From: Candidatus Woesearchaeota archaeon
Lineage (GTDB): Archaea > Nanobdellota > Nanobdellia > SCGC-AAA011-G17 > UBA489
Assembly (NCBI GenBank): GCA_016845225.1
Contig: JAERTB010000005.1
Location: 9,644-73,643 of the forward strand
Direction of reading: 5' to 3'
DNA length: 64,000 nucleotides
Shown here: piece by piece, positions 11,401 through 32,289 of the stretch
Layout: the number at the start of each line of letters is the position of its first letter
Position numbering within the stretch: the stretch's first letter is position 1
Position numbers and translations under genes: made by a program
The notes under the pieces: generated by a model
The model's database searches: none
What the model saw: only the letters and a program-made list of their open reading frames with translations
What the model was told of the DNA's origin: nothing

Positions 11401-11454
11401 TTTTTTAAATAGATTAAATATCAGATTATCACTTTTATTCAGAGATATATAAAA

Positions 11455-11697: not shown

Positions 11698-11757
11698 TCT
11701 TGTACAGAAATTTTTATATACCACTCCTCATTAGTAATCACTAAATAGGTATACAAA

Positions 11758-12153: not shown

Positions 12154-12189
12154 GCAAAGTTTTTTAAATTTATAATCTAGGATAATTCT

Positions 12190-13710: not shown

Positions 13711-13762
13711 TTTATTTACCTATAGCCTAGAGTGTATAGGAAAGCATTATAAATCTTCTCCT

Positions 13763-15310: not shown

Positions 15311-15323
15311 CATTTACCGTACT
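15301..15323 (+). repeat. Copy 2 of the 23-nt exact repeat (tatttagcatttaccgtacttac) spanning the GlyRS stop codon
   Basis: Identical to 3108-3130. Lies 50 bp upstream of the LAGLIDADG endonuclease gene. Confidence 0.8.
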
Positions 15324-15372
15324 TACTCCCTGCTGGAGAATTCTTTTTTAAGTAGTTTAAATTTTATAGGTT

Positions 15373-16137: not shown

Positions 16138-16201
16138 TTCAGTCCGGTAGAACGTGCGGCTGGCAGTCGCAATGCCTCGGGTTCAAATCCCGATCGGTCC
16201 A
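16128..16201 (+). tRNA. tRNA-Ala (anticodon GGC)
   Basis: Manual fold. Acceptor GGGCCGA/TCGGTCC with G3:U70 Ala identity pair, D-arm GTTC-AGTCCGGTA-GAAC, anticodon loop CTGGCAG, T-arm TCGGG-TTCAAAT-CCCGA. 74 nt. Confidence 0.9.
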
Positions 16202-16268
16202 CATTTAGTTATTATTGGGAAGTAGTTAAAATAAAAAGATTTATAAGTTTTGTATTATAAGTTTACTT

Positions 16269-16766
16269 ATGAAATATCAAAAAATTTTGAAAAATCTTAG
16301 TGAGAGTGATTCAAAGTATTTAGTAGTTGGAGGAATGGCATTACTTTTTAGTGGATATAGGCGTTTAACTATGGATCTGGACATCTTAGCAGATTTAAAA
16401 ACTGAAAATCTTGAAAAAATTGTTAAAGTTATGGACGATAATGGATATATTCCAAGAGTTCCTGTCAATGCAAAAGATATTCTTGATGAATCTAAAAGGC
16501 TAGAACGGTTTGAAGAAAAAGGAATGAAAGCATTTACTTATGTACACCCAGAAGACCCTTTGTCTAGTGTAGATTTATTAATATTTAATCCAATTTCTTT
16601 TGAAAATGCTTATGAAAATAAAAGAGAATTGCTTATTGAAAATACTCCTGTGTATTTTGCAAGTATTGATGACTTAATATCTATGAAAAAAGTTGCAGGT
16701 AGAACTAAAGATTTATATGATATAAAGATGTTAGAGATTATAAAGGAAAGAGCAGAAGATGAATAA
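16269..16766 (+). CDS. Nucleotidyltransferase-fold protein (pol-beta superfamily; AbiEii/MNT-like)
   Basis: 165 aa. VGGMALLFSGYRRLTMDLDIL resembles the hG[GS]xA..R.T.DxD NTase motif. Confidence 0.5.
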   Translation: MKYQKILKNLSESDSKYLVVGGMALLFSGYRRLTMDLDILADLKTENLEKIVKVMDDNGYIPRVPVNAKDILDESKRLERFEEKGMKAFTYVHPEDPLSSVDLLIFNPISFENAYENKRELLIENTPVYFASIDDLISMKKVAGRTKDLYDIKMLEIIKERAEDE

Positions 16767-16989
16767 AAGAAAAATATTAGAAGACAAATTATCTGAAGAC
16801 TATGAACTTAGTCTTGGCGAGAAAGTAGATGCCTCATATATCCTGGATTGGGTTCAAGAAACTAACAGATTCTTATATTCTGTAATGGATCAGAAAACCA
16901 AAGATGTTATTTATGAAACTGATAAAATAATGAATCAGAAAGCAACAAAAGAAGATATAAAACTTATTCTTGGAAGATATGAAATTTAA
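16759..16989 (+). CDS. Hypothetical protein, possible partner of the upstream nucleotidyltransferase
   Basis: 76 aa. Start overlaps the NTase gene by 8 nt. No recognisable motif. Confidence 0.3.
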   Translation: MNKRKILEDKLSEDYELSLGEKVDASYILDWVQETNRFLYSVMDQKTKDVIYETDKIMNQKATKEDIKLILGRYEI

Positions 16990-17020
16990 TTAAATTTTAT
17001 CTTATCGTAAGGTTATTATA

Positions 17021-17296
17021 GTGCTGATTCTAGGTATTTGTATGGGAAGAAAAGCAAAGAGCAGAAGAGTCACTATGCAAAAAAGAAAGCGTATGTCTGC
17101 TGTTAAAGGAAAGTTCAGAGAACAGAAAAAGGAAAGAGCAGCGAAAGCTAAAAAAATTGCATTGTCAGGAGCTGCAAAAAAAGAAAGGAGAAAGGTTTAC
17201 AAGAAAGTTAGACCTAAAGTAGATAGAAGTACCAAAAAGAGTTTTTTGAAAAAGATGAGAGAGAAAGCAAAGACTTGGGGACTTATAGATGAGTGA
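17021..17296 (+). CDS. Lysine/arginine-rich basic small protein
   Basis: 91 aa, more than 40% K/R. Overlaps the HIT gene start by 8 nt. Confidence 0.35.
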   Translation: MLILGICMGRKAKSRRVTMQKRKRMSAVKGKFREQKKERAAKAKKIALSGAAKKERRKVYKKVRPKVDRSTKKSFLKKMREKAKTWGLIDE

Positions 17297-17717
17297 GTGT
17301 ATTTTTTGTAAAATTGTAAATAAAGAGATTCCTGCTGAAGTGATTTATGAGGATGAGAAAGTTTTAGTTTTTTTAGATATTAATCCAATTACTCAAGGAC
17401 ATCTTTTAGTAATTCCTAAAAATCATTATGAAAATATATTAGAAACTCCTGAAAATGTTTTGCAAGATGTTAGTTTAATAGTTAAAAAGATGGCACAAGT
17501 CGTTGATAAAATTTCTGATGGAGTGAATATTGGACAAAATAATAAACTTGCTGCAGGACAATTAGTTAATCATCTGCATTTTCATGTAATTCCTAGAAAT
17601 GAGAATGATGGATTGGTTTCTTGGCCAGGAAAAGAATATGAATCTGAAGCTGAAAGACTAAAAATGGCTGAAGAGATAAGAAAAATCGTTAAAGAAGTAG
17701 AAGTAGAGAATCCCTAG
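17289..17717 (+). CDS. HIT-family (histidine triad) nucleotide hydrolase
   Basis: 142 aa. Histidine triad NHLHFHVIPR and N-terminal CIFCKI. Confidence 0.85.
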   Translation: MSECIFCKIVNKEIPAEVIYEDEKVLVFLDINPITQGHLLVIPKNHYENILETPENVLQDVSLIVKKMAQVVDKISDGVNIGQNNKLAAGQLVNHLHFHVIPRNENDGLVSWPGKEYESEAERLKMAEEIRKIVKEVEVENP

Positions 17718-17764
17718 AGTCTCAAAGAAACTCTTTTAAACGCAGTTCTAAAGATTATTTATGC

Positions 17765-17838
17765 GCCTCCGTAGATTAGTTGGCTAAATCGTCAGTCTCA
17801 TAAGCTGAAGATCGAGGGTTCAAGTCCCTCTGGAGGCA
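17765..17838 (+). tRNA. tRNA-Met (anticodon CAT), elongator type or Ile2
   Basis: Manual fold. Acceptor GCCTCCG/TGGAGGC, D-arm GATT-AGTTGGCTA-AATC, anticodon loop CTCATAA, T-arm GAGGG-TTCAAGT-CCCTC. Lacks initiator features. Confidence 0.85.
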
Positions 17839-19563
17839 CTATCCTTTTATTTTTCTGCCAAATCTCTCTATGAATAGAATATGGTCGATGCTTTGATTTT
17901 TGATTCTTTCAATCTTCTTTTTTCCTTTGAAAAGGTCTTTAATTATTGTAGACATTTTTTCTCCAGATACAATGTGTGGAATGATCACATAATCTGCACC
18001 TGCATCGTAAAGGTCTAATGCTTGGTGAATATGCTCTGCAACTACAATTATTTTTGTGTCGTAATTATGTTCTTTAATATAATTAATCATGTAAAGATTA
18101 TCTTCAACTGTTCTCACTGTTGAAACTACGAATTCAGTATTACTTAATCCTGCATGTTTTAGAATTTCTTCATTTGAAACGTTACCATATAGACAGTTTA
18201 CTTTCATCTTTTCTAATTCTTCAACTCTATGCGGATTGTGATCAACAACTAATACTTTTTTCTTTGCTTTTTTGAAAGTGTCTAAGAATATTGCCCCCAT
18301 TCTGTGGCACCCAAATAATACAATGTCTTTTTTTCTTAATTTCTTTTCTTTTTTTAATTTACTTTTTGGAAGAAGTGAAGAAATGAAGCTGTAATATCCA
18401 GATAAGAATGAATAGATTTTGCCTTCAATTCTCAAGGTGTATGCAGTTGTTACTATTGAAACTGCGACTAGCAACACTGTTAGGGAGAATATTTCTGGGC
18501 CAATTAAATTACTACTTAATGCTACTGCTGCAACTATTAATGAAAATTCACTAACTTGTCCTAAAGAGAAACCTGCAGTAGATGCTGCTCTTTTTTCATA
18601 TCCAAATAATAATGCTATTGTTGCAATTAATAGTGGTTTGAAAATGATCACTAATGCCAACATTGCCCAAAAAATATTTACTAAATTGCTCATCCCTGCA
18701 AACTTCATTTGAAGCCCCAAAGATACAAAGAAGATTGTTGCGAAAAAATCCTTTAGTGGTTCAATCATACCTTGAATGTTTAAACTGTATTTTAGCGGAG
18801 CAATACTTATTCCCGCTAGAAATGCTCCAACAGCAATCGAAAATCCAAAGTATGCGGCTATTGTTGAAAAGATAAAACAAGTTGTTAATGAAAGTAAGAG
18901 TATCATTTCTCTATATTCTGCCGCTGCAGTAAATAATCTTGGGAAAACTACGCTAGAAAGTAAGAGTGCTGTTGCAAATATTGCAATTCCTTTGAAGAAT
19001 GATGTTGCTAAAGAAAGAATTGTGAATGATGCAGTAGTAGATATTGCTGAAAGTAAGAAAATAACGATTATATCTTGCATCAATAATAATCCCAATGACA
19101 ATCTACTAGATAATGCATCTATCTCATCATTGTCTGAAAATATCTTAACTACGATGGAAGTACTACTAAATGCAACGATTAAACTTAGAATTGAAGCAAC
19201 AGTCGTATCCATTCCAAATTTCAGCAAAATAAAGAACGCTGCAAGGAATGTTAGAACTACTTGTATGATTGTTCCAGCCGTTGAAAAGAAACCAACTTCT
19301 TTTAGTTTCTTTAGATCCATTTCTAGACCTACAAAGAATAATAAGAATGCAATCCCTATTTCTGAAAGTGCAAAAATAATCTCTTGATTTTTAATTAATT
19401 GAAATGTTGTTGGGCCTAAAAGAATTCCTGCTAAAATATAACCTACAATCAAAGGTTGTTTGAATAATCTTGCGATAAATGCAAGTATGGTTGCAAATAC
19501 AATTATAATTGCTACATCAAATAACAGATTTATCTGTAAGTTAGACAGCACCTCTAAAGCCAT
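17839..19563 (-). CDS. Kef-type (CPA2) K+/H+ antiporter with C-terminal TrkA-N/RCK domain
   Basis: 574 aa. About 12 TM helices followed by a Rossmann-like IVLFGCHRMG NAD-binding motif. Confidence 0.8.
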   Translation of the reverse strand: MALEVLSNLQINLLFDVAIIIVFATILAFIARLFKQPLIVGYILAGILLGPTTFQLIKNQEIIFALSEIGIAFLLFFVGLEMDLKKLKEVGFFSTAGTIIQVVLTFLAAFFILLKFGMDTTVASILSLIVAFSSTSIVVKIFSDNDEIDALSSRLSLGLLLMQDIIVIFLLSAISTTASFTILSLATSFFKGIAIFATALLLSSVVFPRLFTAAAEYREMILLLSLTTCFIFSTIAAYFGFSIAVGAFLAGISIAPLKYSLNIQGMIEPLKDFFATIFFVSLGLQMKFAGMSNLVNIFWAMLALVIIFKPLLIATIALLFGYEKRAASTAGFSLGQVSEFSLIVAAVALSSNLIGPEIFSLTVLLVAVSIVTTAYTLRIEGKIYSFLSGYYSFISSLLPKSKLKKEKKLRKKDIVLFGCHRMGAIFLDTFKKAKKKVLVVDHNPHRVEELEKMKVNCLYGNVSNEEILKHAGLSNTEFVVSTVRTVEDNLYMINYIKEHNYDTKIIVVAEHIHQALDLYDAGADYVIIPHIVSGEKMSTIIKDLFKGKKKIERIKNQSIDHILFIERFGRKIKG

Positions 19564-19615
19564 GTTTATAAAAAGAATTTTCTATTTATTAATTGTTCGC
19601 TACCCTTCAAAGTGA

Positions 19616-19921
19616 TTATAACTTTTTTAGAACTATTTCAATTGTAGAAACTCTTACGTCTTTACCTTCACTGTTCTTGAAACCTTCACTATCTATAGAT
19701 ATATTTGAAACTTCAATTTGTCCTTCAAGAAATCTTTTTGCTGCAACTTCAGCAATATCTACTGCCTTACTTATGAATTTCCCTCTTGCTTTGATTGTAG
19801 AAGTTACTGCGTTTTGAGTTGTAAATTGCATAACTACACCAGTTACATAATTCATAAAGGGCTTATCTCCGATAAAAACAATGTGATCTTTTGATTCACA
19901 CTCTGTGGTCTTCTCTGTCAT
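19616..19921 (-). CDS. alba: Chromatin protein Alba
   Basis: 101 aa. IVFIGDKPFMNYVTGVV ... IKARGKFISKAVDIAEV matches Alba core. Confidence 0.85.
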   Translation of the reverse strand: MTEKTTECESKDHIVFIGDKPFMNYVTGVVMQFTTQNAVTSTIKARGKFISKAVDIAEVAAKRFLEGQIEVSNISIDSEGFKNSEGKDVRVSTIEIVLKKL

Positions 19922-19947
19922 CTTGAGTCACCCTCCTTAGAATGAAA

Positions 19948-20142
19948 TTAAAGTTCTTTTTCGTTCTTAACTAATCTAGTAGCATATCCTGCTATTACGT
20001 TTCTCATCTTTTTACCTGGAGCGGTTAATAATTGTTGAACAACCTTCTTATTTTCTTCAAAATTCTTAGTAAATGAAGATCTCTTTGCTTCTAGTAACTT
20101 GATAGTTGACCTTTTGATTAATTGTGTTTTGATTCTTCCCAT
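19948..20142 (-). CDS. rps17e: 30S ribosomal protein S17e
   Basis: 64 aa. MGRIKTQLIKR ... KKMRNVIAGY matches the eS17 N-terminal domain. Confidence 0.85.
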   Translation of the reverse strand: MGRIKTQLIKRSTIKLLEAKRSSFTKNFEENKKVVQQLLTAPGKKMRNVIAGYATRLVKNEKEL

Positions 20143-20163
20143 AAATTTAGGGTCGAAAAAAGG

Positions 20164-21282
20164 TTATTTAAGCTTTTCTAAAACATATATCTTACGCTTT
20201 ATTTTGCTGTTTTTTAGCTTATAATCTATAGGTATCAATGTATTGTCTAATGGCTGATATATCTCAAATCCGTGTTTTTTAAGCATGGACTGAAATCCTA
20301 TCCGAATAATCTTAGAATTCCTAGTTTTGAAGTTTGGAACGATAATTGACATTTTTGAGCCTTTTTTGAGTAATTTTGAAGCCTGTTGAAGTAACATATC
20401 ATAAGCTCTTGAAAGAGACTTGGCCAATTCTCTTGCTTCTGATTCGGTTGGCAACTTTCTAAGGTATGGTCCAAGATCTGGTTCTGTTGCTATGCAGTCT
20501 ACACCCTTTATTTCTTTTGAAATCCTATGAAGATTTAATTGTTTCATAGAAATCTTTGAATGCGATTTAAAATTTTCTTTTAACCATTGAATATTTTGCT
20601 TCCCTCTTTTGAATAACATAGGATTTTCTTCAATTCCAATGCTTTCTATTCCCATCAGATAAGCTTCTTGAGAAATTGTACCCAATCCACTGTAAGGAAT
20701 TAATAATTTTGATTTGTTTGTTGGTTGTGCTAAGTTGATTAATATTTTTGCTAACCTAATAGATGTAACTCTTAATGGATCAAAATTAGGCCGTTCTTCA
20801 TCTCTTGCTTTGTAACCTTTTGGATCCGATACTGCAGATACTCTGTAAAGTTTATTCTTGAAAAGTGTTAACTCTAAATCTAAATTCTTTGATTTTGAAG
20901 GAGGTATTTCTTTTTCTGTTGGATGTTTTTGCAATAATTTTAATTTTTGTTCTTTAGCAAATTGTTTCAACGTAGTTACTAACTCTTCTTTAGTTTCATC
21001 TGAAGATTCAAATTCATTTGTTGCATAAATTACCTTTGATTTGGTTAAATTTGAAAAAATTCTTGAAATAAATTCTTCCGAATTCTCTATCTCTGAAGAT
21101 ATCTTTATTGTTCCTCCTAATGCATTGATTGCTTTTTTAGGGTCGAATTTTTTAATTTCTGTTTGAATACACTTCTTAGTTATTTTTAGAATTTCATACT
21201 CTCTACTTGTTCTCTTAAGATAAGATACTACTTCTAGGATGCTTAATTCGGCATCTCTTCCCAAATGGAATATGTGTTTCAT
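20164..21282 (-). CDS. Putative THUMP-domain RNA N2-guanine methyltransferase (Trm11/Trm14-like)
   Basis: 372 aa. SAM motif I-like IPYSGLGTI and motif IV-like EPDLGPY. Confidence 0.5.
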   Translation of the reverse strand: MKHIFHLGRDAELSILEVVSYLKRTSREYEILKITKKCIQTEIKKFDPKKAINALGGTIKISSEIENSEEFISRIFSNLTKSKVIYATNEFESSDETKEELVTTLKQFAKEQKLKLLQKHPTEKEIPPSKSKNLDLELTLFKNKLYRVSAVSDPKGYKARDEERPNFDPLRVTSIRLAKILINLAQPTNKSKLLIPYSGLGTISQEAYLMGIESIGIEENPMLFKRGKQNIQWLKENFKSHSKISMKQLNLHRISKEIKGVDCIATEPDLGPYLRKLPTESEARELAKSLSRAYDMLLQQASKLLKKGSKMSIIVPNFKTRNSKIIRIGFQSMLKKHGFEIYQPLDNTLIPIDYKLKNSKIKRKIYVLEKLK

Positions 21283-22894: not shown

Positions 22895-22905
22895 CTATAT
22901 TAACG
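22895..22905 (+). repeat. 11-bp direct repeat ctatattaacg (left copy) flanking the accessory segment
   Basis: Exact match to 32005-32015. Candidate target-site duplication. Confidence 0.45.
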
Positions 22906-22964
22906 GCTTTGCATGTTTATTAACCCTATTTATGTGCAATTTGAAGCCCTGCACATTTATTAAA
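22906..22964. repeat. Left-terminal array of 3 copies of a ~17-bp TTAAT-N-ATGTGCA(A/G) motif (orientation rev, fwd, rev)
   Basis: gctttgcatgtttattaa / ctatttatgtgcaa / cctgcacatttattaa. Inverted relative to the array at 31946-32008. Overlaps the transposase 3' end. Confidence 0.5.
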
Positions 22965-24044
22965 ATCAATGTTTATGCCCAATTCAAACATCTCCTGCAC
23001 CAAAACACACATATTATGTGCAAGACATTTAGCTAAAATCTCATTATCTTGGCCTATTTCACTTTTAGATCTCAAACTTTTCCCAAATTTCATCTTAAGC
23101 ATATGAAAAACAGTCTCAGAATTACTTCTTTTATGGTAATGATTCATAAATTCTTCTCGATTATATCTAAAATAGTCCCACATGGCCCTCCATATGCCTG
23201 TTCCCTTCGGATTGCCTCTAGTATTGCTCTTAAAAGGAATAAAAGGCACTCCTCCACAGTCTGAGACTGCCTGAAGGTTTTTTCTTGATAGATATGCTTT
23301 ATCTGCAGAAACTTCTCTAATATCATAAATTTTTGAAGTGGTTTTTGTTAAATTTTCAAATTCTGGACTATCACCAGAAAAACCTCTTGTTGTATTCACA
23401 GCAGCGATTATATTTGTTTTAACTCCACAGGTCATATGACACTTCCTAAATCTTCTTTTTTCAGTTTCTCTTCCTTTATCAAAACGAATATCAAACCACC
23501 TATCAAATTGGGATGTAGAGAAGCCAGAACTATCTGTAGCGAAGTCAATTTCTACTTCTGCTAAAGGGATTCCAGAAACATTTATGATATGTTGTAAATA
23601 GGTTTTATTTTCAGGTTTTCCTAAACATTTTAACACTGTATTGAAATGAGGGGTTTTTTCTACAAATCCTAATTGTCTACAAATTTCAATATCTGAAATA
23701 CATCTTCTAGAACTTTTTTGATTATAAGATTGAACAACCATATAGAATATTTGATCTCTAGTTGGAATACTTTTTCTTCCTCTTTGAGTTTTATTTTCAG
23801 GAAACTCCATATTGTTCAGTAAATCATTAAGAAAAGAGAAACAAAGAATTTTTTCCTTCATTTGAGCATTGTTGTATGCTGTCCAATCCTGAGTACATTT
23901 TTTAGGTCCTGTTGATTTAGATTTTTTTAATAAAAATTCATCTAAGAGTTTCTGCCTAGAGTAAGGTTGAAGCTTATTAGATCTAAGGATATGTTCTGTT
24001 AGTTTTTCTAACTCTTCTGATAGTTCAATTTCATCATTTTTCAT
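22926..24044 (-). CDS. DDE transposase, IS4/IS5 superfamily
   Basis: 372 aa. C-terminal block RSNSETVFHMLKMKFG resembling the YREK motif. Sits at the end of the flanked segment. Confidence 0.7.
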   Translation of the reverse strand: MKNDEIELSEELEKLTEHILRSNKLQPYSRQKLLDEFLLKKSKSTGPKKCTQDWTAYNNAQMKEKILCFSFLNDLLNNMEFPENKTQRGRKSIPTRDQIFYMVVQSYNQKSSRRCISDIEICRQLGFVEKTPHFNTVLKCLGKPENKTYLQHIINVSGIPLAEVEIDFATDSSGFSTSQFDRWFDIRFDKGRETEKRRFRKCHMTCGVKTNIIAAVNTTRGFSGDSPEFENLTKTTSKIYDIREVSADKAYLSRKNLQAVSDCGGVPFIPFKSNTRGNPKGTGIWRAMWDYFRYNREEFMNHYHKRSNSETVFHMLKMKFGKSLRSKSEIGQDNEILAKCLAHNMCVLVQEMFELGINIDFNKCAGLQIAHK

Positions 24045-24208
24045 GTTATTTAGGTACCTAATAGGTTATTTAAATCTTTCGGTACCTAATGATAAGTACG
24101 ATAAGTGATGAAAATCAAAGTATTTCGCAAACTTTACGAAGTATTTAAGGCAAAACTTATAAATTAAAGTAGTTACTACAAAATAATAGTTAAACTATAT
24201 AGAATAAA

Positions 24209-25573
24209 ATGGAAAATCAAGAAAAATCTGTTGGAGCCATTGTCTATAAAGAAGATTCTGAAGGATTAAAATTCCTTATTTTAAATAGATCTGATAAAAA
24301 AGAAGATTTTTGGGAGTATCCTAAAGGTCACCAAGAAAAAAATGAAACTGATGAATGTACATTAAATAGAGAAATTAGAGAAGAATTAGGAATTAAAACA
24401 TTTAAGATAATAGATGGGTACAAACAAACTATCTCCTATGTTTCAAATAGTAGCGGAAAAATAAGAAAATTGGTTTATTATTTGCTTTCTTCAGATGATG
24501 AGATAATTTTATCTAAAGAACATTCAGATTTAAAATGGATCAGTTTAGAAAATGCAAAATCTTTTTTTGAGTATCATGACATGGTTGAATTATTAGAAGA
24601 CGCAAAAAAATATATACAGAATAAAAAAACAAAAATCAAAATTAGCTCAAAAATCAATATAGTCGTTCCTTGTAGGAATGTGGCCAAGACAATAACTAAA
24701 ACAGTAGATTCTGTAATTTCCCAAGTAGATAATACAAATGGAAAATTGGTCTTGGTAGAAAATGATTCTGAAGACAACACTCAAGAAGTACTTGAAAAAA
24801 TCTCAAAAAAATCTCAAAACATAATTTTGAAAAAATCTCAAAGAGGAAAAATAAATGCTCTTCTAAAAGGGTTCGAGGAATTTGATAGTTTTGAACCAAT
24901 TTTTTGTATAGATGGAGACTCTTGGGCAAAGTATAGAAATTTCTCATTAGCACTTCAAGAATTTCAAAAACATCCAGAATTAAAAATAGTTGGGGGCGTG
25001 CCAAAAATTGAAGAATTTGAAATAAAAGATTCTTTAATGTCGGCAAATCTTTCAGGAATTTATCCAAGATCCAAAAAAGTTACAGATAACAAATGCAGTT
25101 TTAACAAAGCCTTTGAAGATCCGCAAGATAACTTACCACCAGAAATAGAGATTAATTTAAAACCTTTCTTCCATGGAAGACTTTTCTGTTTGAGAAATAA
25201 ATCTGTAGTTCCAAACAAATCATTAAACTGCAACTTACCTGATGACGTTTATTGGAACAGATACATCTTTAATAAATATGGCGAAAATTCAATAAGAATA
25301 CTACAAAAATTACAAGTGTATTATGAACCTTTTAAATCGATGAAAGAGTTGATTAGTTATTGTAAAAGAATTAAAGTTCAAGTGAATAAATTACTGAAGA
25401 TTTTTCCAGAATATTCCTCTCTAAAAAAAGCATTTGAAATATATAGAGACCAAGGATATGTAAAAACATTAAGCAAAAAAGCGCAGGAAGCATTCAAAAA
25501 AGAAGAATCATTTTTCTTAAATAACAAGGAATCTGAAAAAAGTTCTTGGCACGGAGAGAAATATGACCATTAG
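24209..25573 (+). CDS. NUDIX hydrolase fused to family-2 glycosyltransferase domain
   Basis: 454 aa. Nudix box GHQEKNETDECTLNREIREELGI at N-terminus. GT2-like IVVPCRN...DS core in the C-terminal half. Confidence 0.7.
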   Translation: MENQEKSVGAIVYKEDSEGLKFLILNRSDKKEDFWEYPKGHQEKNETDECTLNREIREELGIKTFKIIDGYKQTISYVSNSSGKIRKLVYYLLSSDDEIILSKEHSDLKWISLENAKSFFEYHDMVELLEDAKKYIQNKKTKIKISSKINIVVPCRNVAKTITKTVDSVISQVDNTNGKLVLVENDSEDNTQEVLEKISKKSQNIILKKSQRGKINALLKGFEEFDSFEPIFCIDGDSWAKYRNFSLALQEFQKHPELKIVGGVPKIEEFEIKDSLMSANLSGIYPRSKKVTDNKCSFNKAFEDPQDNLPPEIEINLKPFFHGRLFCLRNKSVVPNKSLNCNLPDDVYWNRYIFNKYGENSIRILQKLQVYYEPFKSMKELISYCKRIKVQVNKLLKIFPEYSSLKKAFEIYRDQGYVKTLSKKAQEAFKKEESFFLNNKESEKSSWHGEKYDH

Positions 25574-26477
25574 ATCAAAATTAGAATGTAAATCCAATGA
25601 TTATACTAATTTAGAACCCTTTGAAAATGATTCTCCAATAAAATCATCAATATTAATTCCAGCATATAATGAAGAAGGGTATCTAAAAAATACTATTAAA
25701 GCTATAAATAACGCAATAGAGTATTCCAATAATCCTAATTTTTTTGAATTGATCATAGTTGATGATGGTTCTAAAAAAGATTTAACAACTATTTTAGAAA
25801 ATGAAGAAATATGTTGTAAAAAGGTTTTCCACCGCTTTCAAAAAAATAGAGGAAGATCTCTTGCAAGAAACAAAGCAATTGAATTATCTTCAAATGAATT
25901 AATCTTTTTCTTTGACAGTGATGTGCTGATTCAAAATAATTATTTTAATGAACACTGGAAGATTCATAATAAAACAAGAAATGCAATTGCAGTCGGTTTA
26001 GCGGAAAATATCTATGGGGGAGATAGAAGGATAAATAGATTTCTATCAGAAAATGCTCCAACACCAGATATTAAAAAAGATTTTAGAATTTATAAAGATA
26101 TAAGTAAATGGGCAGACGAAAACAGTAGAAAAGAATTTCATCTACTGAATGAAACAAACAATTTTAAGCATTGGGGGAATAATAAAAAAATAGATTTTTG
26201 GACATTGCCTTATATGGTGGTTTCACATAATATGAGTGTTTTATCAGAAAATGTTGAAGAAGTAAATGGTTTTGATGAAAGATTTAAGGGATGGGGTTGT
26301 GAAGATAGTTTCTTTGGTGCAAAGTTGATTTCTTCAGGAGGTTATGTAATCCCTGTTTTAAATTCTTCTGCATATAGGATAAAACACCCTCCAAGAGAAG
26401 GAGATGAAAATCAACGTAAAAAAGAGATGATGAATAATATGGATCTTTATGAGCTCTTGTTGGATGAAAAATGTTAG
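25563..26477 (+). CDS. Family-2 glycosyltransferase
   Basis: 304 aa. SILIPAYNEEGYL, IIVDDGS and DSD motifs. Start overlaps the upstream gene by 11 nt. Confidence 0.75.
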   Translation: MTIRSKLECKSNDYTNLEPFENDSPIKSSILIPAYNEEGYLKNTIKAINNAIEYSNNPNFFELIIVDDGSKKDLTTILENEEICCKKVFHRFQKNRGRSLARNKAIELSSNELIFFFDSDVLIQNNYFNEHWKIHNKTRNAIAVGLAENIYGGDRRINRFLSENAPTPDIKKDFRIYKDISKWADENSRKEFHLLNETNNFKHWGNNKKIDFWTLPYMVVSHNMSVLSENVEEVNGFDERFKGWGCEDSFFGAKLISSGGYVIPVLNSSAYRIKHPPREGDENQRKKEMMNNMDLYELLLDEKC

Positions 26478-27289
26478 AAGCAATATTAAAAAAAGAAAAT
26501 TATGAATTAGTTAATCAAGAGTTTTTAGGAAAAAGAAATTCTGTATTTAAAATTAATAATGGAAATAATTTTGCAATTTTAAAAATCTATCAAAATAAAT
26601 ATTTTCCTAATCAAAGAGAATATGAAGCGAATATCTTAGGAAATCTTTCAGGAAATATTGTCTTTCCTAAGATAATAAAATCAGACAAGGAAGGAGGACT
26701 AAATTACAACATTTTAACATTGATAGAGGGTAAAACATTATACGTTGAAAAGCAAGAGAATTATACTTCTTTGGTGGGAAATTATCTAAATTATCTGCAT
26801 AAACTAAAACCTGCAATATGTTCTAGAAAATTGGAAAATGATGAAAATAAAATTATGAAAAAAGCTTTTGCAAAAATAAATGATAAAAGCCTAGAGAATC
26901 TTTTTGAAAAGCAAGATATGAAGGGTAACAAGTCATTCATACATCATGATCCCCATTTCAGACACACGATAATATCTCAAGAAGGGATTGTCGGGATGAT
27001 AGATTGGGAAGATGCAAGATATGGTCATTTAGAAACAGATTACGCCTCATTTATTAAAGATCAAATAGAGACAGATTGTCCAATTTCAGAAATTTATGAA
27101 TTTTCTAAAAATTATAAGGAAAAACCAGAAAATCTATTGAAACATTTAGCTAAAATTTATTTAATCGATTTAGCATTTAAGGAAGGAATTCTTAATAAAT
27201 CTGACGCAAAAACAAAAGAAGTTATTAAAGTAATGCTTTCTAATGATTCTTTTGAAAAAACAATTGAGAGGATTTATGATGATTATTAA
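26471..27289 (+). CDS. Aminoglycoside/choline-kinase-like phosphotransferase (APH fold)
   Basis: 272 aa. Catalytic loop IHHDPHFRHTI and GMIDWEDARYG (D..W.D). Overlaps the upstream gene by 7 nt. Confidence 0.65.
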   Translation: MLEAILKKENYELVNQEFLGKRNSVFKINNGNNFAILKIYQNKYFPNQREYEANILGNLSGNIVFPKIIKSDKEGGLNYNILTLIEGKTLYVEKQENYTSLVGNYLNYLHKLKPAICSRKLENDENKIMKKAFAKINDKSLENLFEKQDMKGNKSFIHHDPHFRHTIISQEGIVGMIDWEDARYGHLETDYASFIKDQIETDCPISEIYEFSKNYKEKPENLLKHLAKIYLIDLAFKEGILNKSDAKTKEVIKVMLSNDSFEKTIERIYDDY

Positions 27290-28376
27290 TGTAACTGGTA
27301 AGAAAGGAAGTGGAAAAACAACTGCACTAAATTACTTTAATAATTTAGGATTTTCAACAGTAGAGTTATATGGCAAATTTCACGAACTTTTGAAAAATGG
27401 TAAATTAACAGAAAAAGAAAAAGAAGCTATAAACAAATGGGATGACTCCCAAATAAATGTGTTAAATGAACACTTATTAAAAAATTATAAAAAAAATATT
27501 ATATTTCTTGGAGGATTACTCAGAACAGAAGAATTAGATTTTTTGAAAAAAAATGATGAAGTTATAACTCTCAACATTGAAACTTCAAAAGATATTTCAA
27601 GATATGGCCGGCTTCTAAAAAGAGCTAGAAATTCAGAAGGAAATTACAGTTATGGGGATTTTTTAAGAAGAGATAAAAATCGTAATGGTGAAACAAAAGG
27701 ATATCATGAAAATAATTTATTGAAAATAATTGATCAATCTGATTTGATTGTTAAGAATAATCATTCCGTGCAGGATTTTGAAAAAGAGCTAGAGAAAGGA
27801 TTAATTAAGATTGGAGCAATATTACAAGAAGGCAAACCATGGTATGAAACTTCAAATAAATATGGCTCATTAAAAAATCAAATACTTTTTGCTATTGAAT
27901 CATTGATTGGAAAGAGAAAGGATGTTTTAGAAAGCATTGAAGATTTAGAAAGTGTAGTTTCCCTTGGTTGTGGATTAGGTACAGAGTTAGATTCAACACC
28001 CGCCAAAAGAAAATTAGGGATAGATTTATTACCTGAAACTTGGTTCAAAAACAGAGATTTTGAATACAAGAATGCAGATTACAAAAATACCTCAAATGCT
28101 GCAGACTTAGTTACACTTCTTAGAACAAATACCACTATCAGAAAAAATTCAAAAAAAGGGATAGAAAAAGGGATATCTCTTGCAAATGAATATTTTATTA
28201 TGAGTTTTGCAACTGCAGGGATAATGTATGATGGTTCAATAAAAAAATTCAAAAAAGCTTCCGATGGAAATTCTTTGGAGGGCCTATTTTCAGAAGTAAG
28301 AGAAGAATTAAACTTATACGGTGAAGTAAATGAAAAAATCACTCCTTTTGAGCATTATTTTATATTAAGGAAGTAA
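27243..28376 (+). CDS. P-loop kinase-like protein with unknown C-terminal domain
   Basis: 377 aa. N-terminal Walker A INVTGKKGSGKTT resembling dephospho-CoA/nucleoside kinases. Overlaps the upstream gene by 47 nt. Confidence 0.5.
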   Translation: MILLKKQLRGFMMIINVTGKKGSGKTTALNYFNNLGFSTVELYGKFHELLKNGKLTEKEKEAINKWDDSQINVLNEHLLKNYKKNIIFLGGLLRTEELDFLKKNDEVITLNIETSKDISRYGRLLKRARNSEGNYSYGDFLRRDKNRNGETKGYHENNLLKIIDQSDLIVKNNHSVQDFEKELEKGLIKIGAILQEGKPWYETSNKYGSLKNQILFAIESLIGKRKDVLESIEDLESVVSLGCGLGTELDSTPAKRKLGIDLLPETWFKNRDFEYKNADYKNTSNAADLVTLLRTNTTIRKNSKKGIEKGISLANEYFIMSFATAGIMYDGSIKKFKKASDGNSLEGLFSEVREELNLYGEVNEKITPFEHYFILRK

Positions 28377-28474
28377 TTTAATATTTTATGTTGTAATGCA
28401 GATTAAAAATCAACTAAAATGTCAAATTCTTGGGTACCTAAAATTATTTAAAGTTTAAAATTATACTAAAATCT

Positions 28475-28636
28475 ATGAAACTCCAAAAACAGCTTTCTAG
28501 AAAAGTTGGAGATAAGGATTATGCTAAGTGGGTTTTGGTAATTCCTCCGGAAATAATCAAGGAAGCATGTCTAAAAGAAGGTCAAGAGTTAAAGATCAAA
28601 GTAAAAGATAATAAACTAATAATTGAGAAAGAATAA
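28475..28636 (+). CDS. AbrB/MazE-type swapped-hairpin small DNA-binding protein (antitoxin-like)
   Basis: Hand-translated 53 aa (MKLQKQLSRKVGDKDYAKWVLVIPPEIIKEACLKEGQELKIKVKDNKLIIEKE). Pattern matches SpoVT/AbrB domain. Missed by the ORF track. Confidence 0.55.
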   Translation: MKLQKQLSRKVGDKDYAKWVLVIPPEIIKEACLKEGQELKIKVKDNKLIIEKE

Positions 28637-28637
28637 A

Positions 28638-28919
28638 ATGGCAAAGAGGAAGGAAATAAATGTTAATTGTTCTTTTGAAAGTTTTGAACCAAAAATAAAT
28701 AATAGAAATGGAGAATTAACACATTTTAGTACTGGAAGCATAGTTATAAAATCAAAAAACTTAATAGGTGTTTATGAACAACAAATAGATACAAATCCTC
28801 ATCCTCCTATATATGATTTGCACTTACAAGAAAGTTTAAGAGGATCTTCAAAAAATAAAAGACCAAAGAAATTCAAGTCGAAAATAATAAATAATCTAAA
28901 TCACCAAAAAATATATTAA
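28638..28919 (+). CDS. Hypothetical basic protein
   Basis: About 93 aa from the ATG at 28638, overlapping the stop of the AbrB-like gene. No motif. Confidence 0.3.
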   Translation: MAKRKEINVNCSFESFEPKINNRNGELTHFSTGSIVIKSKNLIGVYEQQIDTNPHPPIYDLHLQESLRGSSKNKRPKKFKSKIINNLNHQKIY

Positions 28920-28922
28920 AAA

Positions 28923-29591
28923 ATGGCAAAAAAAGATAATATCCAGATAAAGAAAAAATATTTAATAATTATTGGAATCGTTATGTTATTTGTTATTTTA
29001 TTTTTTCTTAATCAAAAAGAAATCTCAGAAAATGATTATAAAAAAGAGGACTATAAACAAGTCACAGCCTCTTACAAAGAAAAATTTTTAGAAACAAGAG
29101 TTGACATTTGCGAATTAGATGAATTTGGTTTTATGAGTGTAACGGGGGTTGTGAAAAATAAAGGAAATCTTAGAGTAAATGAAATTGATGTAGGTGTTGA
29201 TTTTTATAATGGTGAGACTGCAATAGATTATTCTAAGACAGGTGTCTTAAACATTCCTTCAAATGAAGAGAGAGTATTTAACACATTAAGTACAAGCACT
29301 AATAAAATAACGGAATGTAGGGCAAGCATAGTTATTTATCCTTGGGAGTATGAAGAAGAGCAAGAACAAATCAAAATAGAAACAACTATCCCTCAAAAAA
29401 CAGAGATTAAAGAAAGCACATTGTCCTCAACAGAAAAACAAACAATTTGTAATGATATTCTTGCTTATTTTGATTGGTGTTATGACAATAGTGTTTCTGC
29501 AGAAGACTGTGGCAATCAGGCACATGAAAAAGTTTTACGTCTTTATGATATAACCAATTCACAATTACAGGAGGTATTAGCATATTGCTAA
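28923..29591 (+). CDS. Membrane-anchored extracytoplasmic hypothetical protein
   Basis: 222 aa. Single N-terminal TM helix, Cys-containing C-terminal region. Confidence 0.35.
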   Translation: MAKKDNIQIKKKYLIIIGIVMLFVILFFLNQKEISENDYKKEDYKQVTASYKEKFLETRVDICELDEFGFMSVTGVVKNKGNLRVNEIDVGVDFYNGETAIDYSKTGVLNIPSNEERVFNTLSTSTNKITECRASIVIYPWEYEEEQEQIKIETTIPQKTEIKESTLSSTEKQTICNDILAYFDWCYDNSVSAEDCGNQAHEKVLRLYDITNSQLQEVLAYC

Positions 29592-29598
29592 AATAAAA

Positions 29599-29817
29599 AT
29601 GAAAGATAAATCGGTGGCAGTAATCCTAGCAGTTTTTTTAAGTTTTTGGACATGGTTATACACTTACAGCCTAAACTCAAAAAAATTTTGGATAGGCATT
29701 CTCGTAAGTATTTTCGGTATGATAGTATTAGGTTTTCTTGCACCTTTTGGTGTTTGGATATGGGCAATAGTAGATTCTGTTTCAAGAGACACCAAAGAAT
29801 ATAAGAAAATAAAATGA
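29599..29817 (+). CDS. Small two-TM membrane protein
   Basis: 72 aa, hydrophobic. Confidence 0.35.
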   Translation: MKDKSVAVILAVFLSFWTWLYTYSLNSKKFWIGILVSIFGMIVLGFLAPFGVWIWAIVDSVSRDTKEYKKIK

Positions 29818-29963
29818 ACAAAAAAGGCAATTGGAATCTTTCAGCAATCTTAGGGATATCTGCAGTGGGCTTAATCATAATCTCATTTACTGGAATTATT
29901 TCCAAACTTTGGATTTTTTTAGGTATCTTATTCTTGTTCTTAGCATTTAAAGCAAATCATTAG
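29814..29963 (+). CDS. Small two-TM membrane protein (ATGA-overlapped with upstream gene)
   Basis: Hand-translated 49 aa (MNKKGNWNLSAILGISAVGLIIISFTGIISKLWIFLGILFLFLAFKANH). Confidence 0.3.
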   Translation: MNKKGNWNLSAILGISAVGLIIISFTGIISKLWIFLGILFLFLAFKANH

Positions 29964-30040
29964 TTTTTCGCAAATTCTACGAAAATTTGTTAGAAAACAA
30001 TAAAAACATTAAAATAATATGTCTAATTAGAGGTTATAAT

Positions 30041-31030
30041 ATGAAAAAAGAGTTTAAAACAATTGATCTATTTGCAGGTGTTGGAGGAGTAAGATTAGCA
30101 TTCGAAAAAGCAGGTTTTTCAACAGTATTTGCAAACGATATAGATAAAAATTGTAAAAAAACTTACGACATAAATTTTAAAGATATTTATCTTCACGTAG
30201 AAGATATAAATAAACTAGATATTAATTCTATTCCAAAATTTGATATACTTCTCGGAGGTTTTCCTTGTCAGGCATTTAGTATTGCAGGATATAGGCAAGG
30301 ATTCAAAGATAAGAAAGGCAGAGGAAACTTATTTTTTAGAATTGCAGATATTCTTAAAGAAAGAAAACCTCAAGCAATACTTCTTGAAAATGTTAAGAAT
30401 TTGAAAGGACATGACAAGGGTAAGACTTTCAAAATAATTAAAGAAACTCTTGAAAAAGAATTAGGATACTACATTAGAACAGAAGTTCTAAACAGCATGA
30501 CACATGGTAACCTGCCACAAAATAGAGAAAGGATATTTATTGTAGGATTTTTAGATAAAAAGAAATGTGATGCGTTTGAGTTTCCTAAAAAAATAACTTT
30601 AACTAAAAAATGGAGCGAATTTGTGGAAAAAGAAGTAGATGATAAATATTACTACAACGACAAACCACTTTATAATAAAATTAAGAACGACATCAACTCA
30701 GAAGATAAAGTATATCAATGGCGTAGAAAATATGTTAGGGAAAATAAAAAAGGAGTTGTTCCAACACTAACCGCCAATATGGGCAGAGGAGGACATAATG
30801 TTCCAATAATAAAAACTGATAAAGGCATAAGGAAATTAACTCCAAAAGAATGTTTTTTAATCCAAGGATTCCCACAGTCTTTCATTCTTCCAAAAGATAT
30901 TTCAGATAGCGAGTTATACCATCAAGCAGGAAATAGCGTAACCATTCCGGTTATTCAAAGAATTGCAGAGAATATAAAATTAGTATTAGAAGAAAAAAGA
31001 ATAAGTGAACAAATCAAATTAAAAAATTAA
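30041..31030 (+). CDS. dcm: DNA (cytosine-5)-methyltransferase
   Basis: Motif I DLFAGVGG, motif IV GFPCQAFSIAG, motif VI ENVKNL, C-terminal QAGNSV. Start at internal ATG preceded by AGG. Confidence 0.9.
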   Translation: MKKEFKTIDLFAGVGGVRLAFEKAGFSTVFANDIDKNCKKTYDINFKDIYLHVEDINKLDINSIPKFDILLGGFPCQAFSIAGYRQGFKDKKGRGNLFFRIADILKERKPQAILLENVKNLKGHDKGKTFKIIKETLEKELGYYIRTEVLNSMTHGNLPQNRERIFIVGFLDKKKCDAFEFPKKITLTKKWSEFVEKEVDDKYYYNDKPLYNKIKNDINSEDKVYQWRRKYVRENKKGVVPTLTANMGRGGHNVPIIKTDKGIRKLTPKECFLIQGFPQSFILPKDISDSELYHQAGNSVTIPVIQRIAENIKLVLEEKRISEQIKLKN

Positions 31031-31863
31031 AGTTTTTTAAGAAAATCTTTCCAGTCTTTATCACTATTTTTCAATTTAGAAACAGATTTAACATATCTGT
31101 GCCCATCAAACTTTTGTCCAGGTATTTCTGTAACCTTTTCCAAATCATCAAAATATGAAATACCACATATCCAAATAGGGATTTTGTTTAATTTTTTAAT
31201 AGTTTTAAAACCATCATTTTTTTCTAAATACTCTCTAACCTTTCCAAAAAAAGAGTGTTCTCTCAAAATTCTAAATAAATGGTCTGATGGAAGGCCAACT
31301 CTTGCAAAAATATAAACATCACTTTTTCTCTCAACTCTTTCAACTTCATTGGATCCCAATACCAAATATGCGTTTTTCATTTTACTTGCTTTAACTCCAA
31401 CACCTAATTTAGGGTAGACAAATTTCCCCTTTTTTTTGATTCTATGAAAGTCTTGAGGGGTTATTTCTTCAGTATGCACCTCTTCGTCCAATTCTATATT
31501 TGTAGAAAATTTTTCGTTTAGGAATTTTTTTATTGCATGTTCCGCAAGAATCCCCAAAATAACATCGTCAGCTGCCTGGACCTCCGTTCTTTTTCCACGA
31601 ATTCCATGCAATGCAAGTCCTCCATAGACCATTTTTATTGCGAACTCAAAGCATTTTTCATATTCTTTCATTGAAAGATAAATTGTTCTACTTTCTTTCA
31701 AGTTTTTCCAATTGTCTAAATCAGATTTTTTGAACTTCCACCTATTTTTTTCCTTAAATGCAGAAATTTCTTCACTATTCTTAAAATAATTTTCAAATTC
31801 TTTTTTATCAATACCAAGATAATCCAATGCTTCTTTTGAGTTAAAAATCCCTTTTTTCAACAT
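31027..31863 (-). CDS. Putative Type II restriction endonuclease cognate to the Dcm methyltransferase
   Basis: 278 aa, no family match by eye. Convergent and 4-nt overlapped with the methyltransferase. Call is positional. Confidence 0.45.
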   Translation of the reverse strand: MLKKGIFNSKEALDYLGIDKKEFENYFKNSEEISAFKEKNRWKFKKSDLDNWKNLKESRTIYLSMKEYEKCFEFAIKMVYGGLALHGIRGKRTEVQAADDVILGILAEHAIKKFLNEKFSTNIELDEEVHTEEITPQDFHRIKKKGKFVYPKLGVGVKASKMKNAYLVLGSNEVERVERKSDVYIFARVGLPSDHLFRILREHSFFGKVREYLEKNDGFKTIKKLNKIPIWICGISYFDDLEKVTEIPGQKFDGHRYVKSVSKLKNSDKDWKDFLKKL

Positions 31864-31945
31864 AGAATTTTATAAATATGCAATTGTTTATAAACTCTTG
31901 CACATTTTAAGAAGAATAGTTCAAAATCTAGCTATTTGGTCCATT

Positions 31946-32008
31946 TCTCCATTAATGTGCAAACCACATTATTAAATGTGCAGGACTTAATTTATGTGCA
32001 AACCCTAT
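31946..32008. repeat. Right-terminal array of 3 direct copies of the TTAAT-N-ATGTGCA(A/G) motif
   Basis: cattaatgtgcaaacc / attaaatgtgcaggac / ttaatttatgtgcaaaccc. Followed immediately by the direct-repeat copy at 32005-32015. Confidence 0.5.
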
Positions 32009-32015
32009 ATTAACG
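32005..32015 (+). repeat. 11-bp direct repeat ctatattaacg (right copy)
   Basis: Exact match to 22895-22905. Confidence 0.45.
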
Positions 32016-32118
32016 AAATCTTTATAAAAGGTATTGAGTTTTAGTTCATTGAAATCATGAGATATAGGCGCTGTAAAGTGTTTTCATGATTATTAAAACA
32101 AAACGAGGTAATAATAAA

Positions 32119-32289
32119 ATGGCAGAAATGTTAGTTGTAAGAAGTAAAGTAAAGGAAGCGGCTAAAGGAATGAACGTAGCTGGAGACTTTGCAGACTGTT
32201 TAAGCGAAAAAGTTCAAGCATTAATCAATGATGCATCAAGAAGAGCTAAAGAAAACGGAAGAGCAACCGTTAAAGCAAGAGACCTTTAA
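32119..32289 (+). CDS. Small histone-fold-like DNA-binding protein
   Basis: 56 aa from MAEMLVV... Spacing of hydrophobics and C-terminal GRATVKARDL resemble the GRKTIKAxD end of archaeal histones. Weak. Confidence 0.4.
   Translation: MAEMLVVRSKVKEAAKGMNVAGDFADCLSEKVQALINDASRRAKENGRATVKARDL

Follow-up and report, generated by a model that had tools for sequence, protein, structure and literature searches.

The window, the whole 64-kb stretch of DNA that was analysed, carries a segment of accessory genes between lysK on the left and a gene for a histone-like protein, together with hjc, on the right (Table 1). Both this position and the gene content agree with the original prediction, which had listed a DDE transposase, an operon for NUDIX-GT2, GT2, APH and P-loop proteins, an AbrB-like protein, and a Dcm methyltransferase with an endonuclease partner. 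From its sequence, the Dcm-type methyltransferase is certain. The convergent 278-aa protein is a candidate Type II restriction endonuclease; its REase_II match spans residues 47-204 and it has an N-terminal HTH domain (HTH_17), with no Pfam nuclease domain and no relative in a PDB sequence search. The small cargo ORFs at 28623-29905 gave no significant family match. As had been suggested, the base composition was compared with that of the surroundings: G+C is 0.265-0.287 at 24-29 kb, against about 0.29-0.33 in the flanks.

Table 1. Coordinates of the transposon, its genes and its borders, as positions in the window.
Feature	Position	Strand	Evidence or remark
Left copy of 9-bp target-site duplication TATATTAAC	22896..22904	.	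single copy in empty sites L024, L025
Whole transposon, 9,101 bp	22905..32005	- (transposase strand)	L024 and L025 alignments stop at 22905, resume at 32005
Transposase-proximal end, three sites P1-P3	22905..22962	.	architecture kept in 13 relatives
DDE transposase, 372 aa, IS5 family, IS903-group-like	22926..24044	-	PF01609, E = 2.3e-16
Palindromic operator-like sites TT[AC]GGTACCTAA bracketing transposase promoter	24050-24061, 24078-24089	.	
Transposase promoter AAAGATTTAAA	24069-24079	-	inside 24050..24089
Cargo operon	24209..28376	+	four genes
NUDIX-GT2 fusion	24209-25573	+	
GT2	25563-26477	+	
APH-type kinase	26471-27289	+	
P-loop kinase-like protein	27243-28376	+	
Third GGTACC operator, just upstream of AbrB-like gene's TATA	28430-28441	+	feature block 28430..28636
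AbrB/MazE-like protein, 53 aa	28475-28636	+	PF04014, E = 1.4e-6
Small cargo ORFs, 98 aa and 222 aa on +, then 72-aa (+) or 105-aa (-) ORF	28623..29905	.	
C5 cytosine DNA methyltransferase, Dcm type	29987..31030	+	PF00145, E = 5e-88; Type II MTase model, E = 4.5e-122
278-aa candidate Type II restriction endonuclease, convergent with Dcm	31027..31863	-	PADLOC REase_II, E = 1.3e-10
Distal end, three TGCACAT sites, one orientation	31948..32005	.	spacing identical in relatives' distal ends
Right copy of 9-bp target-site duplication TATATTAAC	32006..32014	.	
BRE/TATA (AAATC TTTATAAAA) of histone-like gene	32016..32029	+	conserved in L024-L027

A direct search found the predicted exact 11-mer, CTATATTAACG, at both borders (22895-22905 and 32005-32015); allowing up to one mismatch, the window holds three matches, against 0.77 expected. 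Two related Woesearchaeota (L024 and L025, with 89% and 96% nucleotide identity) run from lysK straight into the histone-like gene with one CTATATTAACG between them, providing the empty site for which a search had been proposed, and two more distant genomes (L026 and L027) have the same intergenic region uninterrupted. The element has recently inserted between the divergent lysK and histone-like genes, duplicating 9 bp of target. The repeat reads as 11 bp in the window because the element's two terminal bases each equal the neighbouring target base. The locus combines a single transposase and its passengers with one pair of inverted ends, one duplication and an empty site, as in a unit transposon or transporter insertion sequence, and this supports the predicted mobile, cargo-carrying transposon. 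The transposase has about 4,500 homologues at E <= 0.001, but the databases hold no near-identical second copy of the element and the closest transposase is 70% identical, so a single event documents the movement of this particular 9.1-kb unit; exact-sequence look-ups with the window transposase and LysK returned the same locus only, in two sequencing runs of one study.

On the + strand, the termini of the element are GGCTTTGCA (22905-22913) and TGCAAACCC (31997-32005); the reverse complement of the latter is GGGTTTGCA, and the family consensus terminus is TGCAAAGCC. The terminal inverted repeat is 13/18 identical on direct reading of both ends, as first reported. Each end carries the site TGCACAT(A/T)(A/T)AT three times, in a layout that is fixed and conserved across the family. 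The distal cores (31955-31961, 31976-31982 and 31994-32000, + strand) are spaced 21 and 18 bp. The transposase gene runs at its 3' end into the proximal end, which begins with P1, the terminal site GGCTTTGCATGTTTAT (22905-22920), which has the core variant TGCATGT in place of TGCACAT and whose positions 10-15 are variable in other family members as well. P2 is flipped (ATGTGCA at 22932-22938), and the TGCACAT core of P3 (22950-22956) has the orientation opposite to that of the right end. The description of the ends as three-motif arrays inverted between the two extremities thus holds for the number of sites but not for their orientation, which is mixed at the left end rather than a simple mirror. 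P2 and P3 lie within the coding sequence of the transposase C-terminus, and conservation of these sites may therefore partly reflect protein constraint.

The ATGTGCA/TGCACAT motif occurs 14 times in the 64 kb, against 5.5 expected, and seven of these occurrences lie within about 125 bp of the element's two ends. The arrays are not the ordinary promoter elements that had been considered as a counter-explanation, since the window holds only isolated copies outside the ends; across all loci examined, complete arrays were found only at element ends and in one end remnant. The ends were located by motif scanning, and a generic repeat finder run on 22.5-32.5 kb did not single them out. No complete end array was present in 71 Woesearchaeota LysK loci, one of which (L084) has a possibly decayed end-like sequence, and the three-site distal array had 0 matches among the viral contigs scanned.

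The proposed search for the transposase with its end motifs elsewhere led to ten complete relatives of 3,542-9,560 bp that share this anatomy, with three TGCACAT sites at each end and cargo lying between the transposase and the distal end. Outside GGCTTTGCA...TGCAAAGCC, nine of them have a duplication of exactly 9 bp and the other has one of 8 bp, and the sequence of the flanking repeat differs in every family member. Their cargo varies, often comprising restriction-modification or other defence genes and sometimes large surface proteins. At further loci, no distal end was found within 5.6 kb for L095 (P0009 type) or within 10 kb for L131, and L010 has no TGCACA/TGTGCA motif across the 11 kb examined. 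The family has been seen so far mainly in DPANN archaea.

Time and again, the relatives have inserted upstream of a gene promoter, at a fixed spacing from it. In eight of the ten complete insertions a TTTATAAA-type TATA box stands at exactly 6 bp from the duplication, and T[AT]TAA[AG]-N2-T[AT][ATC]-N1, a regular expression derived from the same sites used to test it, directly precedes the duplication in 8/10; in 2.2 Mb of Woesearchaeota DNA, with both strands counted, it occurs at a background of 5.5e-4 per position per strand. L123 fits the expression in its 8-bp register, and in L129 each side has TTAAAC in the same register. Among the junctions known from one flank, five also match and seven lack the motif, as would be expected if it lay on the unseen side. 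The targeted promoters include those of an rRNA operon, TFB, two thermosome genes (at least one of them, that of L123, by the looser match) and the histone-like gene of the window. The TATA box of the latter (ORF 32086-32289) begins 6 bp from the duplication, and its BRE/TATA is the target-defining promoter. The TATA box lies on one side of the duplication, and the targeted promoter is left intact, facing away from the element.

Promoter adjacency might instead reflect survival, with near-random insertion followed by persistence of harmless intergenic copies; in such gene-dense genomes, only intergenic insertions would likely be tolerated. Selection of this kind, however, would not fix a single-base register such as the exact TATA offset seen in 8/10, and even a motif ten times commoner in intergenic DNA would be met by chance at only ~0.01 per site. 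Furthermore, in L105 a new element has entered the 9 bp adjoining a 130-bp remnant of an older end, and shorter end-like sequences lie beside the duplication in L122 and L123. We consider the survival reading improbable.

Targeting could operate in more than one way: target choice may be set by the BRE/TATA sequence read directly, or via DNA bent by TBP and TFB. We suggest, tentatively and with more doubt than conviction, that the family finds its site via TBP/TFB-bound or -bent BRE/TATA DNA, as a prokaryotic DNA-transposon counterpart of Ty3/Tf1 promoter targeting, and from there shuttles defence and surface-protein genes among the very small DPANN genomes. Recognition of such bound or bent DNA would place the element a single helical turn upstream of the promoters that are strongest (those of rRNA, thermosome, TFB and histone genes), and promoter-side targeting would give the element a safe landing place beside them. 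The yeast retrotransposons Ty3, Ty1 and Tf1 likewise insert upstream of promoters or transcription starts with a short, constant spacing, sparing coding sequence, but they are retroelements guided by host transcription factors, whereas the DPANN family is a DNA transposon. Its choice of integration site is unusually precise and promoter-linked, and spares the promoter and neighbouring genes. Given the short, well-defined ends and the single transposase, direct tests of the targeting rule should be feasible, and the rule could become a tool for inserting DNA beside archaeal promoters.

By sequence comparison the transposase is IS903-like, probably a distant member of that group within the IS5 family, and does not belong to IS4: NF033579, its best NCBIfam model, is matched over positions 2-287 of 289 with 116 bits, under the curated cutoff of 140 bits, while the IS903 transposase scores 353 bits. 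BLASTP against the latter gives 24% identity (E = 5e-11) and aligns D171, D238, E310 and the Y-2-R-3-E-6-K motif. Termini of the GGC type, GGCTTTGCA, are present at both ends of the 10 complete elements, and IS903 ends read GGCTTTGTTGAATAAATC / ...CAAAGCC. The 9-bp duplication is also that of IS903 (PMC13618097; PMC2577343 Table 1).

The original prediction had instead assigned the element to the IS4 family, with an 11-bp target duplication. The exact 11-bp direct repeat around the window's element, which recurs in L004 and L105, is what such an element would leave, and the Y-2-R-3-E-6-K motif is common to the IS4 and IS5 families. Yet the IS4 model NF033592 reaches 29 bits (cutoff 115), over the C-terminal 55 residues only, compared with the full-length match to the IS903-type IS5 model, and the GGCTTTG...CAAAGCC termini equal those of IS903. 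In addition, the outer positions of the would-be 11-mer mismatch in several relatives (both in L108, L118 and L129, one in L006 and L122), while the inner 9 are perfect. The IS4 and 11-bp reading is thus largely refuted, and we regard it as very unlikely.

Within the IS903 assignment, the DPANN family is distinct in several respects besides its archaeal host. Insertion sequences of the IS903 group are compact, at about 1 kb, and have a single ORF and one ~18-bp terminal inverted repeat (ISfinder), whereas the elements described here are 3.5-9.6 kb, contain cargo and have three binding-site repeats at each end. Tn903 carries its cargo between two IS903 copies, while the 2-8 kb of cargo in the DPANN family is inside a single element. 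The IS903 target consensus is WTTYA-N9-TRAAW (PMC2577343); the two share a T-rich preference just outside the duplication (TTT at -4 to -2 in the DPANN family), but in the DPANN family the motif lies on one side only and reaches out to a TATA box at 6-14 bp.

Taken as a whole, 22905-32005 is very probably a single unit transposon with its passengers inside inverted ends, a member of a mainly-DPANN family with distant kinship to the IS903 group of bacteria. The lone transposase, at one extremity, and the heterogeneous cargo would also fit a small insertion sequence lying beside unrelated genes, or a decayed composite transposon whose distal end is what remains of a second copy. We find this highly improbable: the empty site removes all 9.1 kb together; no second end lies near the transposase start (24045-24208), where GGTACC operators are found instead; 22905-32005 contains one transposase gene, with no second copy or internal end array, rather than two insertion-sequence copies around cargo; and the same asymmetric layout recurs in all ten complete relatives, none of which is a plain insertion sequence of ~1.3 kb. 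A genomic island that owes its integration to a site-specific recombinase, the 11-mer being the att core and the transposase an unrelated passenger, is scarcely credible in spite of the border repeats, accessory genes and slightly lower G+C, as the segment has no integrase, conserved inverted ends always accompany this transposase, and flanking repeats that differ between members are expected of a duplication and not of an att site. On this evidence, the site-specific recombination, composite-transposon and survival-bias readings were rejected.

For the unit transposon, we propose that the DDE transposase (D171, D238, E310) binds all six sites and pairs the distant ends; it would then cut at the GG termini and join them to target cuts staggered by 9 bp. 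Like transporter insertion sequences (tIS) and unit transposons (ISfinder, TnCentral), the element combines one transposase and passengers with a single inverted-end pair and moves as a unit, but described examples of these are overwhelmingly bacterial. All complete members found of the DPANN family have cargo, which makes its carriage look like a trait of the family. Several asymmetrically arranged transposase-binding sites per end and site-selective integration are also features of Tn7-like transposons and Mu, as is defence-rich cargo (PMC8649781). Their transposases are unrelated and their duplication is 5 bp, whereas the DPANN family duplicates 9 bp and has a single IS5-type protein, with neither TnsA/B/C or MuA/B nor a dedicated target-selector protein.

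To our knowledge, few DNA transposons with cargo have been documented in archaea, and DPANN mobile elements have been little studied. Our literature searches found no description of this family; a 2026 survey of archaeal insertion sequences has DPANN only in its reference list, refers to IS5 once, in a comparison with bacteria, and does not mention passenger genes or target sites (PMC13343696). With this family there is a concrete means by which defence genes, restriction-modification among them, can move from one very small genome to another.

The transposase promoter and the element's AbrB-like gene have in common a palindromic GGTACC operator. Its sequence, GGTACCTAA, has four matches against 0.27 expected, all of them inside the element, where they sit at the promoters of the transposase and AbrB genes. 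The AbrB-like cargo protein of 53 aa is a candidate element-encoded regulator; it may repress the transposase promoter and its own via the three GGTACC palindromes. As a separate observation, single-sequence folds support hairpins in the transposase leaders of the relatives.

The segment between lysK and the histone-like gene is a cargo-carrying transposon, as the original prediction held in its central idea. A LysK scan with one genome per species yielded 71 loci, including two near relatives (L024 and L025; L numbers denote loci from other genomes, gathered through LysK or transposase homology) with 89% and 96% nucleotide identity to the window across the insertion region. The empty site proposed as a check is present in both: they lack the insert and carry a single copy of CTATATTAACG, reading ...CAAATAGAGG CTATATTAACG AAATCTTTATAAA... 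unbroken in the alignment. Their BLASTN matches to the window run to 22905 and restart at 32005, overlapping by 11 locus bases. The more distant L026 and L027 (~69% identity) have the same conserved intergenic region, also unbroken. Because L024-L027 keep this region continuous, the 9.1 kb is an insertion and the unbroken state is ancestral. The insertion left the promoters of lysK and of the histone-like gene intact. From related contigs, the host is a marine archaeon of the Woesearchaeota (DPANN).

Scans with Pfam, NCBIfam and PADLOC models recovered the predicted gene content: a DDE_Tnp_1 transposase, a NUDIX-GT2 fusion, a GT2, an APH-type kinase and a P-loop protein, together with a 53-aa AbrB/MazE-like protein, several small ORFs and a Dcm methyltransferase. 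Convergent with Dcm is a 278-aa HTH protein with a hit (E = 1.3e-10) to a Type II restriction enzyme model; the cargo includes this candidate restriction-modification pair and a sugar-modification/kinase operon. The neighbors are also those predicted: class I LysRS borders the element on the left, and a histone-fold gene and Hjc lie on the right. The sugar/kinase cargo is lower in G+C (0.265-0.287) than the flanks (0.29-0.33) and the transposase region (0.316), and its source may be distinct from that of the transposase module.

At E <= 0.001 the window transposase has ~4,500 homologues; those that are named come mainly from Woesearchaeota, Nanoarchaeota and Aenigmarchaeota. We gathered the DNA on either side of relatives that are 55-69% identical, and all share one anatomy. 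The distal end (right in the window) begins GGCTTTGCACAT and contains three TGCACAT sites in a single orientation, their starts spaced by 18 and 21 bp; variable cargo genes lie between it and the transposase gene, which is read toward the proximal end. There, three sites alternate in orientation, and the element terminates ...TGCAAAGCC, overlapping the transposase stop codon. This six-site architecture with variable cargo is conserved across the family; the suggested search for the transposase and its terminal motifs elsewhere found the same end arrays. In the window, direct reading of the sequence confirms the 13/18 terminal inverted repeat, and ATGTGCA/TGCACAT occurs 14 times against 5.5 expected, 7 of the 14 within ~125 bp of the two ends. 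The arrays had been described as three motifs per end, inverted between ends; the three sites per end and the single orientation on the right stand, but on the left the terminal site is a variant (TGCATGT) and the middle one is flipped.

Ten complete elements, the window's included, were delimited (see table), and none of them is a plain insertion sequence. A perfect 9-bp duplication lies directly outside GGCTTTGCA...TGCAAAGCC in nine. The exact 11-mers predicted in the window are real, but the duplication is 9 bp in these nine elements, not the 11 bp claimed: in three cases the target is by chance C-N9-G, and the terminal G and C of the element prolong the repeat. The limits of the window element in the table follow from this explanation. 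In L116, the 40 bases to the left of the distal end match, as their reverse complement, those that follow the proximal end on its right, and the left flank of L118 differs; this symmetry is either an assembly artefact or reflects an element inverted within the population.

Elements and associated features, with positions in the window or the named locus (11-mer, the 9-bp duplication plus one base on each side)
Locus	Feature	Position	Length	Remark
Window	Element	22905-32005	9,101 bp	C-N9-G target, apparent 11-bp duplication
Window	CTATATTAACG	22895-22905; 32005-32015		Both perfect
Window	Duplication TATATTAAC	22896-22904; 32006-32014	9 bp	
Window	Palindrome, two copies	24050-24089		On both sides of transposase promoter
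Window	Palindrome, third copy	28430-28441		Just upstream of TATA box of AbrB-like gene
Window	G+C of sugar/kinase cargo	24000-29000		0.265-0.287
L118	Element		3,542 bp	11-mer mismatched at both outer positions
L004	Element		4,393 bp	C-N9-G target, apparent 11-bp duplication
L006	Element		4,580 bp	11-mer mismatched at one outer position
L132	Element		5,463 bp	Perfect 9-bp duplication
L108	Element		6,035 bp	11-mer mismatched at both outer positions
L122	Element		6,552 bp	11-mer mismatched at one outer position
L105	Element		6,944 bp	C-N9-G target, apparent 11-bp duplication
L123	Element		7,590 bp	8-bp duplication
L129	Element		9,560 bp	11-mer mismatched at both outer positions
L105	Element beside distal-end remnant	11170-11320		Equals L005 6937-7064, L011 758-904
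L122	End-like GGCTTTGtcccgaaaagtgcGCAAAGAC	11255-11295		Beside duplication
L123	End-like GCCAAAGCC	3640-3658		Beside duplication
L108	Leader hairpin	9962-9987		
L122	Leader hairpin	9963-9988		
L123	Leader hairpin	9962-9988		
L006	Leader hairpin	4114-4133		
L118	Leader hairpin	2388-2423		
L116	Symmetric flanks	1-40; 3580-3620		
L129	IS200-type Y1 transposase gene	996-1544		One side of element
L129	Small-ORF run	11324-21176		Other side of element

The link drawn to the IS4 family is not right: for the transposase the IS4 model gives only 29 bits, versus 116 bits over the whole of the top NCBIfam model, NF033579 (IS5 family), a score itself below the curated cutoff. The transposase of IS903 (an annotated copy from a Klebsiella plasmid) scores 353 bits on NF033579 and is 24% identical to the window protein (BLASTP, E = 5e-11), with D171, D238, E310 and the Y-2-R-3-E-6-K motif lined up. 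IS903 has the ends GGCTTTGTTGAATAAATC and ...CAAAGCC and a 9-bp duplication (PMC13618097; PMC2577343, Table 1). The window element shares termini and duplication length with the IS903 group, and probably works like IS903; unlike that group, it is not a compact, single-ORF element. For this reason, and given the score below the cutoff, we file its family as a separate cargo-carrying lineage, a distant archaeal relative of IS903. An integrase-borne island, a composite transposon and an IS4 element were all rejected for the window element.

Most surprising to a specialist will be the promoter-anchored integration and obligatory cargo of this family. With junctions oriented from flank through duplication to element, the window, L004, L006, L105, L108, L118, L122 and L132 all have nnTTTATAAA(G/T)GTTT(C/T) as the 16 bases ahead of the duplication, and the motif recurs in relatives with junction sequence on one side (L007, L020, L022, L023, L117P). 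L123 matches if its duplication is taken as 8 bp, and L129 has TTAAAC on both sides in the same register. On the opposite strand the motif is (G/A)AAAnnTTTATAAA, an archaeal BRE and TATA box, from which insertion keeps a fixed offset; in the window, motifs of this type often precede start codons by 20-60 bp, the transposase's own among them. In six cases the motif adjoins the distal end and in seven the proximal one, and it is therefore without orientation bias. Counted on both strands of 2.2 Mb of Woesearchaeota DNA, the regular expression for the motif has a background of 5.5e-4 per position per strand, which gives a chance of ~1e-3 per insertion of an exact-offset match on either side; the expression was built from the same sites it scored, which inflates formal significance, and the effect is nonetheless very large. 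The promoters hit are those of the histone-like gene (window), an rRNA operon (L122), TFB (L105) and, independently, thermosome genes (L108 and, only in the looser 8-bp register, L123).

In L105, only the 9-bp duplication separates the complete element from a ~130-bp older distal-end remnant, 91% identical; either a promoter-proximal site was struck twice or a tandem was partly deleted. The end-like sequences in L122, resembling a 28-bp mini-remnant of both ends, and in L123 may be left over from insertions or excisions in the past. Such cases suggest that one position has been used repeatedly.

We infer that an IS903-like DDE transposase would bind the TGCACAT sites, pair the distant ends and integrate through 9-bp staggered cuts; multiple sites may aid synapsis of ends several kilobases apart. 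The target could be chosen either because the BRE/TATA sequence is read directly or through TBP/TFB-bent DNA. IS903 favors WTTYA beside its duplication (PMC2577343), with which the TTT at -4 to -2 of the target motif agrees.

The palindrome TT[ACG]GGTACCTAA has three copies in the 64 kb, all within the element (4 strand matches, 0.27 expected). In relatives, element-specific direct repeats surround the transposase promoter, and the transposase gene has a small, divergently oriented neighbor whose product is of AbrB-like, winged-helix or zinc-ribbon type. The simplest reading of these sequences is that the element encodes a putative repressor of its transposase. Five relatives have a stable hairpin directly 5' of the transposase GGAGG and ATG (z-scores -2.9 to -5.1), with stem sequences that vary between elements; the window element lacks it. 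This leader hairpin could act as a translation gate.

Cargo in the relatives includes Dcm, an HNH endonuclease, a GmrSD-HNH protein, DUF6978, DUF1828/1829, a winged-helix protein and an AbrB-like protein (L105/L005); Vsr and Dcm (L122); GmrSD and two N6/N4 methyltransferases (L129); an MmeI-type enzyme and further genes with defence-associated domains, over >10 kb (L131); an N6 methyltransferase (L132); a D12-class methyltransferase (L095); a ParB-like and a radical-SAM protein (L123); a KAP NTPase (L004); and large secreted or surface proteins (L006, L108, L116-L118). The P0009-type element of L095-L104 combines a single, 100%-identical transposase with different surroundings: at least four flanks downstream and, upstream, at least three cargo junctions, where the sequences part ~370 bp ahead of the transposase gene. 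This points to an active, multi-copy, cargo-swapping element. The L129 element (9.6 kb) has an IS200-type Y1 transposase gene on one side and, on the other, an extended series of small ORFs together with a tyrosine integrase and a reverse transcriptase; this locus looks like a mobile-element hotspot.
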